Positions 1,342-58,631 of a DNA stretch of 64,000 bases are shown here, piece by piece. Every line of letters starts with the position of its first letter. The first letter of the stretch is position 1. The notes under the pieces were generated by a model, which saw nothing but the letters and a program-made list of their open reading frames with translations, ran no database searches and was not told the origin of the DNA. The position numbers and the translations under genes are program-made. Source of the stretch: an uncultured Actinomycetota bacterium (GTDB taxonomy: Bacteria; Actinomycetota; Geothermincolia; Geothermincolales; RBG-13-55-18); contig CAZEAU010000011.1 in NCBI GenBank assembly GCA_964510515.1, positions 4,712 to 68,711 of the forward strand. Reading direction: 5' to 3'.

Positions 1342-3249
1342 TCAGAAAGGCATGCGGTAATCGCCCTCGCGCCGGGTGACACGCTTGCGGTCGAAGTGCT
1401 CGAGCAGGGGGATGGCGTACTTGCGGCTGGCGCCGAGCATGTCCCGCACCTCCGCCACCTCCAGCCTCCCGCTGGCGGCGAGATGGGCGCGGATGCGCTC
1501 CTCCGCCTGGGAGAGCAGGCCGTGCGCCAGGAAATAGTCGGCGTTCACCTGCTCGATTTCCCCCTCCTCCACGAGCATGGCCAGCATGTCGCGCAGCGCT
1601 CCCCTCTCCAGGCCCGACGAGGCCAGCATCTCCTTGAAGAGAGGGGGGGAATAACCGCCCTCGCGGATGGAGCCCAGCAGCTCCTCCTTGACCGCCTGTT
1701 CCGCCGTGGAGAGCGACCTGCCCTTCCCGGCCAGGCGCACCCGCCCCGCCTCCACCTCCAGCGCCCCGGCGGAGACCAGGTCGCGCAGCAGGGCCTCGAA
1801 GACCTCGGGGGTGAGCGCCGCGTCCGCCCCCCGCCGCAGCGCTTCCTTCTCGACCCCCGGCTTGAGCGGGTTGGCCTCATGCATCTCCACGGTGGCGGCG
1901 GTCAGGCGCTCCCGCAGCGATGCCAGCAGGGCGGGGGTGACGAAGAGCGGGGCGCCGTCCCCCGCCACCTCCGCCATCTTCCCGCCGGAGATGAGCTCGG
2001 CGAGGGCGGAGTCCACCTCCGACTCACCCAGCTCGACCCGGGAGATGAGCTCCCGCCGCGAGAGGGGAACGCCCTTTTCCTCCACCGCCAGCAGCAGCAG
2101 CTCCCGCGGCATGCCCCGCTCCCGCACCTCCAGGCCCTCCAGCACCTCCCGGCGGTGGTGGCGGTGCTTGGCGGGGTGGGCATCGAGGATGACCCCGCCC
2201 CCGATGGTGGTCACCGGCGAGTAGCTGCGCAGGATGAAGCGGTCGCCGTAGGCGGCGATGAGCGGGCTCTCCAGGCGGAACTGCACATAGGCTTTCTCGC
2301 CCGGGGGAAGCTCCTCCCTGCCCCCCAGGAGGACCACCCGCGCCATGACCTCCCTGGTGCCGTGGTGAAGGCGCACCCGGGCGCGGTTCTTCAAGGGCCG
2401 CGGGGCGGCCGCGATGAGCTGGAGGCCGGCGTCGGCCATGAAGGTGGTGCGCAGGTAGCCGGGCGTCCCCAGCACGTCCCCCCGCTCGATGTCTGCGGTG
2501 GAGACGCCGGGCAGGTTCATGGCCACCCTCTGCCCGGCGAAGGCGCGCTCCACATCCCCCCCGTGCACCTGTATATTGCGCACGCGCACCTTCCTCCCCG
2601 AGGGCTGTATGACCCCCTCATCGCCGTCGGCGGCACTGCCCTCCCACATGGTCCCGGTGACCACCGTTCCTATTCCCTTGAGGGTGAAGACGCGGTCCAC
2701 GGGAAGGCGGAAGGGGCCGCTCTCGTCGCGACGGCCCAGGGTGGACGCCACGCGCAGCAGCGCCTCGCGCAGCTCGTCCAGGCCCCGGCCGGTGCGGCTG
2801 GAGGTGACCACGACCTCGGCGCCCTCCAGGGCCGTCCCCGCCACCGCCTCGGCGACATCCTCCCTGGCCAGCTCCAGCATATCCTCGTCGACCAGGTCCG
2901 CCTTGGTGATCACCAGCACCCCGTGCTTCACCCCCAGCAGGTCCACGATGGCCAGGTGCTCCAGCGTCTGTGGCATCACCCCATCGTCCGCCGCCACCGC
3001 CAGCAGCACCAGGTCGAAGCCGCTCGCGCCCGCCAGCATGTTCTTCACGAAGTGTTCATGCCCGGGGACGTCCACCACGCCGGCGGCGACCCCGCCCGGG
3101 AGGGCGATGTCCGCGAAGCCCAGCTCGATGGAGATGCCGCGCTCCTTTTCCTCCTTGAGGCGGTCGGTGTCCACCCCGGTGAGGGCACGGATGAGTTCCG
3201 TCTTGCCGTGGTCGATGTGCCCCGCCGTGCCGATGATGAAGCTCTTCAT
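1342..3249 (-). CDS. selB: Selenocysteine-specific translation elongation factor
   Basis: [12 protein letters not shown]-loop, [18 protein letters not shown]; C-terminal winged-helix region ending [13 protein letters not shown]...R.GDYR. Confidence 0.97.
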
Positions 3250-53397: not shown

Positions 53398-53853
53398 GTG
53401 ACGGAGGCTTTACGGGACGGCGATGAATCCGGCGACATCTTCGCTATGCGCAGAGACATCGGGCGCTTCTTCAGCAATCCTCCCCCTTGGGACAGGAGGC
53501 CCTCCTCCGCCGTCTTTGAGAAGGCGTGGAAGCCCCTGTGCGACGTCTATGAGGGCCCGGAGCACTTCACCGTGGTGGTGGAGCTGGCCTGGGTGGACGA
53601 GGAGAAGGTGGAGGTCACCCTGCACGGCAGGGTGCTCTCCGTCCGTGGTCACCGTGCGCGCTTCCGGCCGCCGGACATGGACAAGACCTACATGCTCGAG
53701 ATAGACTCCGGCGATTTTGAGAGGACCCTGGAGCTCCCCACGGACATAGATGCGGATGGCACCCGCGCCATCTACCGCAAAGGCCTGCTGGAGATCATCC
53801 TGCCTAAGCGCAAGAGAGAGAAACTGCGCGGCGTGGACATCAGCTGCGATTGA
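53398..53853 (+). CDS. Hsp20/alpha-crystallin family protein
   Basis: DVYE....V.VEL..V....V.V.L....L.V.G.R, G.FER..LP, A.Y..G.L.I.LPK. Confidence 0.92.
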   Translation: MTEALRDGDESGDIFAMRRDIGRFFSNPPPWDRRPSSAVFEKAWKPLCDVYEGPEHFTVVVELAWVDEEKVEVTLHGRVLSVRGHRARFRPPDMDKTYMLEIDSGDFERTLELPTDIDADGTRAIYRKGLLEIILPKRKREKLRGVDISCD

Positions 53854-53889: not shown

Positions 53890-56667
53890 TTGCCTGACAG
53901 CGATTTCCCGATGGGCATGACCGAGCCCTACATTCCAGAGATTCTTCCCGTCCTGCCCCTCAAGGAGACGGTTATCTATCCCCATATCATCGTCCCGCTG
54001 CTGATCACCAGGGAGGAATCCGTCAAGCTCATCGACGATGCACTGGCGGCGGACCGCCTGGTGGCCGCGGTGGCCAGCCGGGAGGAGGTGGAGACGCCGT
54101 CGCCGCAGCAGCTCTACGATATCGGCACCGCGGCGGCCATCATCCGCATGCTCAAGCTGCCGGACGGCTCCATGCAGCTCTTCGTGCAGGGCGTGCAGAG
54201 GATACATGTGCGCGAATACGTGGAGCAGCAGCCATACCTCAAAGCCCGGGTGGAGAAGGCCAGGGAGGACGTAGAGGAGACGGTGGAGCTGGAGGGCCTG
54301 GCGCGCAATGTGCTCACGCAGTTCAAGAAGATGGTCACCCTCGCCCCCTACCTGCCCAATGAGATATTCATCGCCGCCATGAATATCGGCGAGCCCAACA
54401 ACCTGGCCGACTTCATCGCCTCCAACATCAACATCGAGGTGGGGGAGAAGCAGGAACTGCTCGAGGCCCTCGACATCAAGGACCGCCTGGAGAAGCTCAC
54501 CGTATTCCTCAACAAGGAGATCGAGATCCTGGAGATCGGTTCGCGCATACAGTCCGAGGTGCAGACGGAGATGTCCAAGAGCCAGCGTGAGTACTTCCTG
54601 CGCGAGCAGCTCAAGGCCATACAGAAGGAGCTGGGCGAGGCCGACGAGCGCACCATGGAGATAAACGAGTTCCGCGAGAAGATGGACGAGAGTGGCATGC
54701 CCGAGGCGGCGCGCAAAGAGGCGGAACGCGAGCTCGACCGCCTGGCCAAGATGCCCGTGGCCGCGGCCGAATACACCGTGGCCCGCACCTACCTGGAATG
54801 GCTCACCAGCCTGCCCTGGAACGCGAGCACGGAGGACAACCTGGATATCAAGCGGGCCCGGCAGGTGCTGGACGAGGACCACTACGACCTGGACAAGGTC
54901 AAGGACCGCATCGTGGAGTACCTGGCCGTGCGCAAGCTCAAGGAGGATATGAAGGGCCCCATCCTCTGCTTCGTGGGGCCGCCTGGCGTGGGCAAGACCT
55001 CCCTGGGCCAGTCTATCGCACGCGCCTTGGGGCGCAAGTTCGCGCGCATCTCCCTGGGCGGCATGCACGACGAGGCGGAGATCAGGGGGCATCGCCGCAC
55101 CTATATCGGGGCCCTCCCGGGCCGCATCATCAGGGGCATACAGAGGGCCGGCTCCAACAACCCGGTGTTCATGCTCGACGAGGTGGACAAGATCGGCGCC
55201 GACTTCCGCGGCGACCCCGCCTCGGCCCTGCTGGAGGTGCTGGACCCGGAGCAGAACCATTCCTTTTCCGACCACTACCTCGACGTGGATTTCGACCTCT
55301 CCAAGGTCATGTTCATCACCACCGCCAATACCCCCGTACCCATACACCCCGCCCTCCTCGACCGCATGGAGGTGCTCGAGCTTCCCGGCTACACCGAGGT
55401 GGAGAAGGTGCATATCGCCACCGACCACCTCCTGCCCCGCCAGTTCGATGCCCACGGACTGAGGAAGAGCCAGATCGCCATCGGCGAGGAGGCGCTGCGG
55501 GCCATCATCCGCAACTACACCCGCGAGGCGGGAGTGCGCAACCTGGAGCGGCAGATAGCCGCCGTGTGCCGCAAGGTGGCCACCGATATCGCCTCCGGCA
55601 AGCGCAAGAGCAGGAAGGTGGCGGAGAAGGACCTGCACGAGCTCCTGGGCCCCTCCCGCTACCGCTTCGAGGTCCTGGAGGAGGAAGACGAGATAGGGGT
55701 GGCCACCGGCCTGGCCTGGACGGAGGCGGGCGGAGACGTCCTCTTCGTGGAGGCCCAGGTCATGCCGGGGGAGGGGGACCTTATCCTCACCGGCAAGCTG
55801 GGGGACGTCATGCAGGAATCGGCCAAGGCGGCCCTTACCTACTGCCGCAGCACGGCGGGCAGCTACGGGGTGGACGCCGGTTTCTTCCGCGGCAACGACA
55901 TGCACGTGCATGTGCCCGCGGGCGCCATCCCCAAGGACGGGCCCAGCGCGGGCGTGACCATGGTCACCGCCCTCATGTCCTCCATCACCAGAAGGAAGGT
56001 GCGCAAGGAGGTCGGCATGACCGGCGAGATAACCTTGCGGGGCAAGGTCCTTCCTATCGGGGGGCTCAAGGAGAAGGTGCTGGCGGCCCACCGCGCCGGC
56101 GTGAAGAAGGTCATCATCCCCGAGGAGAGCCGGAAGTACCTGGAGGAGATACCCGCCTTCATCCGCAAGGACATCAAGTTCATACCCGTAAGGCACATCG
56201 AGGAGGTGCTCAAGGTGGCCCTGCACCCGCCGGTGAAGGCGGGCGCAGCGGGGCAGGGGGTGCCCGCGGCGGGAAAGGCCGCCAAAAAAGCGGCTGTGAA
56301 GCCATCCAAGCCGGCGGTGAAAAAGGCGGCCGGGAAGCCATCCAAGCCGGCGGTGAAAAAGGCGACCGGGAAGGCATCCAAGCCGGCGGTGAAAAAGGTG
56401 GCCGGGAAAGCATCCAAGGCGGCGGTGAAAAGCTCCGCGAGCAAGCCCGCTAAAAAGAAGGCCGTGAAAGCATCCAAGCCGGCGGCGAAAAAAGCGGCCG
56501 TGAAGTCATCCAAGCCCGCGGCCTCCAAAGCCTCCAAGGCGGCGGTGAAAAGCTCCGCGAGCAAGCCCGCTAAAAAGAAGGCCGTGAAGGCATCCAGGCC
56601 GGCGGCGAAAAAAGCGGCGAAGAAGACCGCGAGGCCCGCCGCAAAGAAGACCTCCGGGCTGCGGTAA
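53890..56667 (+). CDS. lon: ATP-dependent Lon protease with a 147-aa Lys/Ala/Pro-rich C-terminal extension
   Basis: GPPGVGKTS, RRTYIGALPG, LDEVDK, PKDGPSAG (catalytic Ser), IGGLKEK (catalytic Lys). Confidence 0.97.
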   Translation: MPDSDFPMGMTEPYIPEILPVLPLKETVIYPHIIVPLLITREESVKLIDDALAADRLVAAVASREEVETPSPQQLYDIGTAAAIIRMLKLPDGSMQLFVQGVQRIHVREYVEQQPYLKARVEKAREDVEETVELEGLARNVLTQFKKMVTLAPYLPNEIFIAAMNIGEPNNLADFIASNINIEVGEKQELLEALDIKDRLEKLTVFLNKEIEILEIGSRIQSEVQTEMSKSQREYFLREQLKAIQKELGEADERTMEINEFREKMDESGMPEAARKEAERELDRLAKMPVAAAEYTVARTYLEWLTSLPWNASTEDNLDIKRARQVLDEDHYDLDKVKDRIVEYLAVRKLKEDMKGPILCFVGPPGVGKTSLGQSIARALGRKFARISLGGMHDEAEIRGHRRTYIGALPGRIIRGIQRAGSNNPVFMLDEVDKIGADFRGDPASALLEVLDPEQNHSFSDHYLDVDFDLSKVMFITTANTPVPIHPALLDRMEVLELPGYTEVEKVHIATDHLLPRQFDAHGLRKSQIAIGEEALRAIIRNYTREAGVRNLERQIAAVCRKVATDIASGKRKSRKVAEKDLHELLGPSRYRFEVLEEEDEIGVATGLAWTEAGGDVLFVEAQVMPGEGDLILTGKLGDVMQESAKAALTYCRSTAGSYGVDAGFFRGNDMHVHVPAGAIPKDGPSAGVTMVTALMSSITRRKVRKEVGMTGEITLRGKVLPIGGLKEKVLAAHRAGVKKVIIPEESRKYLEEIPAFIRKDIKFIPVRHIEEVLKVALHPPVKAGAAGQGVPAAGKAAKKAAVKPSKPAVKKAAGKPSKPAVKKATGKASKPAVKKVAGKASKAAVKSSASKPAKKKAVKASKPAAKKAAVKSSKPAASKASKAAVKSSASKPAKKKAVKASRPAAKKAAKKTARPAAKKTSGLR

Positions 56668-56705: not shown

Positions 56706-56742
56706 CCCCCCGCCCCCCGCTGAGGGAGCGGGGGGCGGGGGG
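56706..56742. terminator. 16-bp perfect GC hairpin between convergent genes (bidirectional terminator-like)
   Basis: CCCCCCGCCCCCCGCT-gaggg-AGCGGGGGGCGGGGGG. Confidence 0.65.
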
Positions 56743-57590: not shown

Positions 57591-57670
57591 CTCAGGCCGT
57601 GGGCCTCGAACTGGCGGGGCAGGAGGTGGTCGGTGGCGATATGCGCCTTCTCCACCTCGGTGTATCCGGG
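57591..57670 (-). repeat. 80-bp inverted copy of an internal lon segment (55384-55463)
   Basis: Ungapped alignment with 4 mismatches; translates YTEVEKAHIATDHLLPRQFEAHGL versus YTEVEKVHIATDHLLPRQFDAHGL in lon. Confidence 0.92.
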
Positions 57671-57736
57671 GAGCCAGCCGTAGCCGGGCGCCCGGCGCGT
57701 GGGGCGAGACGGTTTGAAGGAGCAGCGAGTGAGGGC

Positions 57737-58200: not shown

Positions 58201-58556
58201 GTGGCACATCCGTGGCACATCCGGGGTCAACCCCAACAATCGCCATAGCACTTCCGGTGGCACTTCTGGGGTCAACCCTCGAGAGGGACGCCAGCGAAAA
58301 CCATTTGTAAGTGGCACATCCGGGGTCAACCCCAACAATCGCCATAGCACTTCCGGTGGCACTTCTGGGGTCAACCCTCGAGAGGGACGCCAGCGAAAAC
58401 CATTTGTAAGTGGCACAGGGTGGGGTTGACACCGTAAGGGACATCAGCTGAAGAAACGTCGGTTCTGGCACTTCCCGGGGTTGACCCCGGAAAGGACGGA
58501 AGGGAAGTTGGGGAGTTAAGTTATGGCACTTCCCGGGGTTGACCCCGGAAGGGACG
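58201..58556. repeat. REP/BIME-like array including an exact 99-bp tandem duplication
   Basis: (G)TGGCAC + GGGGTCAACCCC/GGGGTTGACCCC palindrome units at 58212, 58257, 58311, 58356, 58410 (degenerate), 58466 and 58524. 58212-58310 is identical to 58311-58409. Confidence 0.9.
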
Positions 58557-58631
58557 CCGGGGGAGCGGCGGGCACCGTCCCCATCCGGGCGAAGTCGTTG
58601 ACGCCGCGTCGCCGGCGGCGGTCTCTCGCGC

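Follow-up and report, generated by a model that had tools for sequence, protein, structure and literature searches.

A lysine-rich, low-complexity C-terminal tail on the LonA protease of an uncultured Geothermincolia bacterium

The subject of this work is the lon gene of an uncultured actinobacterium, which lies in a 64,000-nt stretch of contig CAZEAU010000011.1 (assembly GCA_964510515.1; the whole stretch is called the window, and all positions are counted from its first letter). The gene encodes a 925-residue ATP-dependent protease of the LonA type in which the conserved body is followed by 147 further residues rich in lysine, alanine, proline and serine. The anatomy and reality of this tail, its conservation within the clade, the constraint on its composition and the absence from the same protein of the DNA-binding lysine patch of proteobacterial Lon are documented here, and a role for the tail in tethering the protease to polyanions is proposed.

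The lon gene starts at a TTG codon with GGAGG 8 nt upstream and has a GC content of roughly 66% (local GC 0.61-0.73). Pfam places PF02190, PF00004, PF22667 and PF05362 in that order, complete and in a single chain, which is LonA architecture (Table 1; within the ATPase module AAA spans residues 359-495 and Lon_lid residues 521-573). The NCBIfam equivalog TIGR00763 ('endopeptidase La') matches residues 20-778 with 991 bits (cutoff 608), and the alignment to E. coli Lon (PDB 6u5z) extends over residues 19-778 with 825 bits and no large gaps. Walker A (GPPGVGKTS at 363) and Walker B (DEVDK at 430) are both intact, as is the catalytic dyad, formed by the Ser in DGPSAG at 683 and the Lys in GGLKEK at 724; these motifs align with those of E. 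coli, 6u5z itself having S679A at the equivalent Ser. Judged by its motifs, the window LonA is catalytically intact. Residue 778, at ...EEVLKVAL, is thus the end of the conserved Lon body: the TIGR00763 and 6u5z alignments stop there and the Pfam match one residue later, in agreement with an initial annotation of this DNA made from the letters alone. E. coli Lon has 13 residues beyond the equivalent of 778. The window protein thus shares the full domain set and the catalytic motifs of canonical LonA (E. coli, Caulobacter, B. subtilis and Meiothermus; 6u5z, 7fd4 and 3m6a), from which it differs by its 147 extra C-terminal residues, since the solved LonAs end at most ~25 residues past the protease domain.

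The tail contains 43 Lys (29%) and 3 Arg, together with 30% Ala, 12% Ser, 10% Pro and 8% Val, and not a single Asp or Glu, giving a net charge of +46. The Lon body, by comparison, is 6% Lys and 16% Asp plus Glu, and at the body frequency of acidic residues the probability of finding none in 147 positions is p = 7e-12. Without the tail each protomer has a net charge of -21 and an isoelectric point of 5.5, which rises to 9.4 when the tail is included; the six tails of a hexamer together carry about +276. The basic residues are arranged in 34 clusters of one to three, and the spacers between them are almost always 2-4 small neutral residues. None of the six frames of the window's 64 kb holds another Lys/Ala/Pro-rich acid-free segment. 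GC content at third codon positions (GC3) within the tail is 0.80 in the Lon frame and 0.56 and 0.61 in the other frames, and the body has a GC3 of 0.91. Among alanine codons a shift from GCC to GCG was seen between body and tail.

Two tandem arrays lie in the tail, as detected by Tandem Repeats Finder (TRF). The first consists of in-frame 36-bp units, namely PSKPAVKKAAGK (56302), PSKPAVKKATGK (56338), ASKPAVKKVAGK (56374) and the degenerate ASKAAVKSSASK (56410), and the second of two 120-bp copies that differ at 14 positions, with 2 differences in their central 86 nt. The repeats are recent, though imperfect. TRF and the composition bear out the initial description of a 147-residue Lys/Ala/Pro/Ser tail that holds 36-bp units and a duplicated 120-bp stretch; the same description spoke of 'perfect repeats', which is an overstatement because the 120-bp copies differ at 14 positions, repeat copies being 88-91% identical.

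Table 1. Features of the lon locus, with positions in the window.
Feature	Residues of Lon	Position	Strand	Basis
lon, 925-residue LonA including the tail, plus TAA stop		53890-56667	+	ORF (open reading frame)
LON_substr_bdg PF02190	19-209	53944-54516	+	E 3.8e-50
Site of the proteobacterial DNA-binding charge patch, S-T-E-D-N-L	313-318	54826-54843	+	6u5z alignment
AAA+ ATPase module and lid	359-573	54964-55608	+	PF00004, PF22667
S16 Lon proteolytic domain, Lon_C PF05362	576-779	55615-56226	+	E 5e-91
147-residue polycationic low-complexity tail	779-925	56224-56664	+	composition; no family match
36-bp (12-residue) tandem repeat, 4.1 copies, 91% matches		56284-56431	+	TRF
120-bp (40-residue) tandem duplication, x1.9, 90% matches		56400-56639 (TRF 56407-56639)	+	TRF
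hsp20, alpha-crystallin small heat-shock protein		53398-53853	+	PF00011 HSP20, E 7.6e-15
Perfect 16-bp G/C hairpin, 5-nt loop		56706-56742	+	folding -67.3 kcal/mol, z -3.0

Many public metagenomes contain the window sequence; they come from bioreactor, landfill, biofilm and wastewater samples and from a biogas fermenter. In X1 (bioreactor) and X2 (landfill), two DNA runs that belong to separate studies, Logan unitigs tile the entire tail with 0 mismatches. A repeated 56-mer has a depth of ~2.3x that of the flanks, as two copies of the 120-bp unit would give; the k=31 unitigs break inside the repeat region, and the exact repeat copy number and any length polymorphism within a population are beyond their resolution. 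On the sequence data, the tail is a genuine in-frame part of LonA.

The genomes closest to the window are metagenome-assembled genomes of Candidatus Geothermincolia (Solincola, Geothermincolales), in the phylum Actinomycetota. A survey of Lon C-termini, a step that the initial annotation had proposed, drew on 80 genome loci and 80 metagenome loci, with membership of the clade defined by a protease domain at least 79% identical (n=25, comprising 9 genome loci and 16 metagenome loci). A C-terminal extension is found in 25/25 clade Lons, 8-107 residues in length, and the 147 residues of the window are the longest. On a neighbour-joining tree built from residues 480-778, outgroup tails reach at most 13 residues, except for 50 residues in L015. 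Two basal clade members have tails of 29-35 residues with a net charge of +5, while tails in the crown are 43-147 residues long. Within the crown lies a Lys-rich subclade (the window, L002, L004/L081, L082, L105, L001, L083 and L087/L088) with net charges of +15 to +46; here the relatives of the window have tails of 43-107 residues and +15 to +35. As the alignments and tree have it, the tail characterises Geothermincolia Lon across the lineage and was secondarily lost in a single sub-branch.

A conserved H/Y-P-D-G-K/R linker precedes tail sequence that diverges fast, such that identity to the window over aligned columns is 18-62% for the tails and 81-89% for the protease domain. Despite this divergence, Lys plus Arg make up 23-38% of the clade tails and Asp plus Glu 0-12% (0-5% in the Lys-rich subclade), and we infer that selection acts on the composition of the tail, not on its sequence. 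Relatives have in-frame tandem repeats of their own, of 90 bp in L082, 24 or 27 bp in L002 and 24 bp in L004, and the repeat periods of the window and its relatives (36, 120, 90, 24 and 27 bp) are all multiples of 3. The length variation foreseen from the window's repeats is borne out by the range of 8-147 residues across the clade and by close strains that differ in repeat arrangement. In runs X7 and X9 the lon of a sister strain continues ...HPDGKAPRP, which is the 75-residue tail type of L004, and a contig from run X13 leaves the window sequence after 56642 and enters a further repeat unit; the X13 variant and the X7/X9 sister strain are only hints of length polymorphism. An origin by fusion with a neighbouring H1-like gene was considered and rejected: in none of the outgroup loci does a Lys/Ala/Pro-rich, H1-like ORF stand beside lon as a gene of its own. 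The flanking DNA of the 25 clade loci contains no Lys/Ala/Pro-rich acid-free segment other than the Lon tails.

Beyond the clade, a phmmer search with residues 576-925 against 1.84 billion representative proteins returned distant Lons with long basic tails, among them P0136 (~10 AAKKRTTKA repeats), P0130, P0009, P0071 and P0138; P0267 is a further Lon of this kind. As in the window, the polycationic low-complexity tail of these proteins comes straight after the protease domain and in some contains tandem peptide repeats. Their protease domains are only 47-60% identical to that of the window and their tail sequences are unrelated to it, so these tails are independent gains. Short terminal Lys/Arg runs occur on several outgroup Lons, e.g. 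L020, L034 and L042, and more distant Lons are mostly tail-less. Because basic extensions are present on unrelated Lon lineages, polycationic appendages are a recurrent convergent theme of this protease family; among the lineages sampled, Geothermincolia is the one in which the tail is consistently present. In L016 (bacterium GMC4) a Lys/Arg-rich extension, ...KAVKSTKKTKAKSKRRTRKKSARK..., was observed at ~2878-3000, at the N-terminus and not the C-terminus.

The surroundings of lon are as follows. The hsp20 gene ends 36 nt upstream on the same strand, and the two are likely a heat-shock gene pair; no HspR operator (the HspR-associated inverted repeat, HAIR) was found upstream of hsp20-lon or elsewhere in the window. 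The downstream neighbour is an uncharacterised 154-residue ORF on the opposite strand, without a Pfam match. The hairpin listed in Table 1 begins 39 nt past the lon stop and is terminator-like, without a T-run. A second lon is absent from the window; all that recurs is an 84-nt fragment of the gene (55380-55463, coding ...PGYTEVEKVHIATDHLLPRQFDAHGL...), found inverted at 57591-57674 on the minus strand with 94% identity, ~110 nt upstream of tRNA-Arg(CCT). This inverted repeat is real in the genome because X2 DNA unitigs break at both of its arms, and it may be a rearrangement remnant or the result of integration at the tRNA. Just downstream of tRNA-Arg, 58212-58565 contains a perfect 99-nt tandem duplication and two more copies of a ~25-nt palindromic core (GGCACTTCCGGGGTCAACCCCGG); in X2 it is covered 4-6x as deeply as its flanks, and contigs are joined there in alternative ways, which suggests a multicopy element resembling repetitive extragenic palindromes (REP) or miniature inverted-repeat transposable elements (MITE). 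A tRNA-Sec gene with anticodon TCA is present at 745-840, and the organism therefore probably makes selenoproteins.

No Pfam family at E<=10, no NCBIfam family and no PDB chain matched the tail. The tail alone, searched against a 5.8-billion-protein collection, gave nothing at E<=0.001 among the 8000 best candidates by shared words, and the exact 925-residue protein is not on record. The C-terminal domain of eukaryotic histone H1, Hc1/Hc2 of Chlamydia and AlgP of Pseudomonas bind and condense DNA. They are alike to the window tail in being Lys/Ala/Pro-rich, acid-free and made of short repeats, and unlike it in that the window segment is the tail of an enzyme, not a free-standing chromatin protein, and shares no detectable homology with them. 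Homology to H1, Hc2 or AlgP was rejected for want of any match in Pfam (which we take to include an HC2 model), NCBIfam, PDB or the protein collection. Of the initial label 'histone-H1-like', the composition and the lysine spacing of H1/HupB-type tails (34 clusters) stand, while homology does not; since the tail matches no family or structure, the label is a compositional statement only.

A nearer parallel is found among the lysine repeats of actinobacteria. In Streptomyces TopA, a 71-residue stretch of K1-2(A/T/N)3-5 repeats is needed for DNA binding by the C-terminal domain and for processivity, and lysine repeats are over-represented in proteins that bind DNA, for example HupS, Ku, FtsK and HrdB, and occur also in other GC-rich bacteria (PMC5714199, PMC7398561). 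Like TopA, HupS/HupB (MDP1), Ku, FtsK and HrdB, the window Lon carries a terminal Lys/Ala-rich low-complexity tail on a conserved core, and like the tails of Streptomyces and Mycobacterium it has degenerate units of 1-3 Lys and a few small neutral residues, a length that varies between taxa and a GC-rich actinobacterial genome. The host protein family is itself a DNA binder (PMC7566177). The tail is thus a terminal Lys-rich stretch on a member of a DNA-interacting family, in a GC-rich genome, with a length ranging over 8-147 residues in the clade. The differences are that the host protein here is an AAA+ protease, and that Streptomyces TopA ends in an acidic Glu-Asp where the window tail has no such terminus. 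By analogy, the tail is classed as a variant of the actinobacterial lysine repeat, its closest experimentally studied analogue. The lysine-repeat proteins discussed in PMC5714199 do not include Lon, and in the literature searched no description of a Lon with a basic C-terminal tail, and no solved Lon structure with one, was found. What is new is the long lysine-rich tail on Lon; lysine-repeat tails and DNA-binding Lon were already known.

Lon binds both DNA and polyphosphate, through basic residues of the ATPase domain in E. coli and through the alpha subdomain in Brevibacillus (PMC7566177). In Caulobacter Lon, DNA binding depends on K301/K303/K305/K306, as do tolerance of genotoxic stress and the clearing of chromosomal proteins (bioRxiv 10.1101/317677; PMC11719849), and the charge of this patch allosterically tunes ATP affinity, activity and oligomerisation, a 4E variant being active and a 4A variant poorly active (PMC11719849). 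The equivalent E. coli residues R306/K308/K310/K311, with the Caulobacter residues taken from PMC11719849 and their mapping to E. coli inferred from the K-x-K-x-K-K pattern, align with S313/E315/N317/L318 of the window, which are acidic or neutral and include no basic residue. The window Lon is therefore without the proteobacterial DNA-binding patch, and in this respect both it and most of the non-proteobacterial relatives examined are unlike canonical proteobacterial LonA.

The reading that we favour, and to which we give about an even chance, is that the tail is a disordered polycation that tethers Lon to polyanions, chiefly the nucleoid, and that its length is reset by slippage under selection for charge. 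This reading is drawn from the fact that lysine-repeat tails (PMC5714199, PMC7398561) and Lon itself (PMC7566177) are known DNA binders. The tail would have arisen at the root of Geothermincolia Lon and would since have been repeatedly remodelled and resized by in-frame replication slippage, with selection preserving a Lys/Ala/Pro/Ser-rich, nearly acid-free composition throughout. Six tails per hexamer would bind polyanions electrostatically and non-specifically, with chromosomal DNA as the first candidate target and RNA or polyphosphate as possible others. Such binding could concentrate Lon on the nucleoid and so favour the degradation of DNA-bound or neighbouring proteins, the tail supplying an affinity that proteobacterial Lon obtains from the lysine patch of its ATPase domain.

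Several observations weigh against a tether of this kind. The strict TopA motif K1-2(A/T/N)3-5 has 0 matches in the tail, whose shorter spacers, with Pro, Ser, Val and Gly among their residues, do not fit it; relaxing the motif (spacers of 2-5 A/T/N/S/P/G/V between K/R clusters of 1-3) gives 31 consecutive matches. The acidic 'TEDNL' patch is common to nearly all of ~150 relatives, some of them tail-less and from other phyla, so that the tail is not a specific replacement for a lost patch: the acidic patch is ancestral and present in tail-less Lons. Compensation for a lost lysine patch was accordingly rejected as an explanation, patch state being uncorrelated with the tail across the ~150 Lons. 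Half of the clade, the sister group of the Lys-rich subclade, has weaker tails of mixed Arg, Ser, Gly and Glu with net charges of +8 to +11. In the L006/L093 sub-branch the tails have secondarily shrunk to 25 and 8 residues, and the tail is dispensable at least there, because that sub-branch has lost most of it. Lysine is encoded by AAA at 16/43 positions (37%) in the tail and at 2/48 (4%) in the body (p = 1e-4), which fits relaxed translational selection or slippage-prone DNA. A single-sequence AlphaFold prediction for residues 576-925 has a mean predicted local distance difference test score (pLDDT) of 50.8, with the protease domain itself poorly modelled, a quality too low to bear on disorder. 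Finally, run X10, labelled as RNA-Seq, shows flat coverage along 10 kb, with intergenic DNA covered as well, and the organism is missing from its sister runs; X10 is not counted as evidence of transcription because its coverage is even across intergenic DNA too. The end of an X10 contig at 56712 was dropped as a candidate transcript 3' end.

The strongest rival, unlikely though worth taking seriously, is that the tail is low-complexity sequence whose expansion was tolerated and which has little if any specific function, the C-terminus being permissive and AAG/GCC-rich DNA prone to slippage; at most it would then aid solubility or act as an 'entropic bristle'. Fast turnover, a range of 8-147 residues and the secondary loss in L006 and L093 are what such an expansion would be expected to leave behind, and the independent tandem repeats of differing period in relatives, the atypical lysine codon usage and a repeat arrangement that varies between close strains also point this way. 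However, neutral GC-rich sequence would not reach 29% Lys with zero acidic residues, and the basic bias is seen in ~20 independently diverged tails, most strongly in the Lys-rich subclade, as well as in unrelated Lon lineages. Moreover, the tail persists class-wide, and ~190 kb of clade DNA holds no similar segment elsewhere.

A more elaborate form of the tether is rather improbable, namely that the protease is gated by polyanions or forms condensates: six +46 tails might co-condense the hexamer with DNA, RNA or polyphosphate, and might dock on the acidic allosteric patch until a polyanion competes for them. If so, the nucleoid or polyphosphate granules would turn proteolysis on or restrict it in space. 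A little less probable still is an electrostatic switch without the condensate, in which the tail would dock in cis or in trans on acidic Lon surfaces, including S-T-E-D-N-L, and be displaced by polyanions, altering ATPase activity or oligomerisation by autoinhibition or activation. In its favour, the homologous patch of Caulobacter Lon, through its charge, sets ATP affinity, activity and the oligomeric state (PMC11719849), the patch is natively acidic in the window Lon, and a body of net -21 faces a tail of +46; but the acidic patch is ancestral and is found in tail-less Lons, and the tail exits from the protease ring.

Anchoring to membranes or anionic lipids, or the recruitment of acidic substrates or adaptors, is more doubtful again. 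Polybasic tails can bind acidic phospholipids, and the charge of +46 per protomer is the only feature that would commend such a role. Against it, the tail has no amphipathic or hydrophobic element, its K-x2-4-K spacing with Ala and Pro matches that of DNA-binding lysine repeats, and the neighbouring hsp20 and 154-residue ORF give no hint of a membrane. Least probable, and effectively refuted, is a false extension created by an assembly error, a frameshift or a lost stop codon, for although repeats are hard to assemble, the unitigs are broken within the repeat region and frameshift-like Arg/Ser/Cys-rich pseudo-tails exist on the database Lons P0027, P0028, P0029, P0096 and P0116, independent studies hold the identical sequence, 25 clade relatives have in-frame tails, GC3 backs the Lon frame and a hairpin follows the stop. 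The long Arg/Ser/Cys-rich 'tails' of those five database proteins resemble frameshifted read-through in GC-rich DNA, and are a caution for automated surveys of Lon C-termini.

The question of why Lon should bind DNA has stood open since the 1980s, and recent work argues that DNA-bound Lon clears persistent chromosomal proteins and that patch charge is an allosteric regulator (bioRxiv 10.1101/317677; PMC11719849). The organism studied here is uncultured, the function of the tail is read from its composition, and lysine-repeat tails as such were already known. The finding nevertheless adds an ATP-dependent protease to the carriers of actinobacterial lysine repeats. If the polyanion-gated or condensate-forming reading holds, Geothermincolia and a few other lineages would have independently evolved a transferable module that confines a protease in space. 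Furthermore, the natural tail variants of 8-147 residues, together with the convergent Lons of other lineages, form a comparative series with which to ask whether polyanion tethering is selected and how it affects activity.

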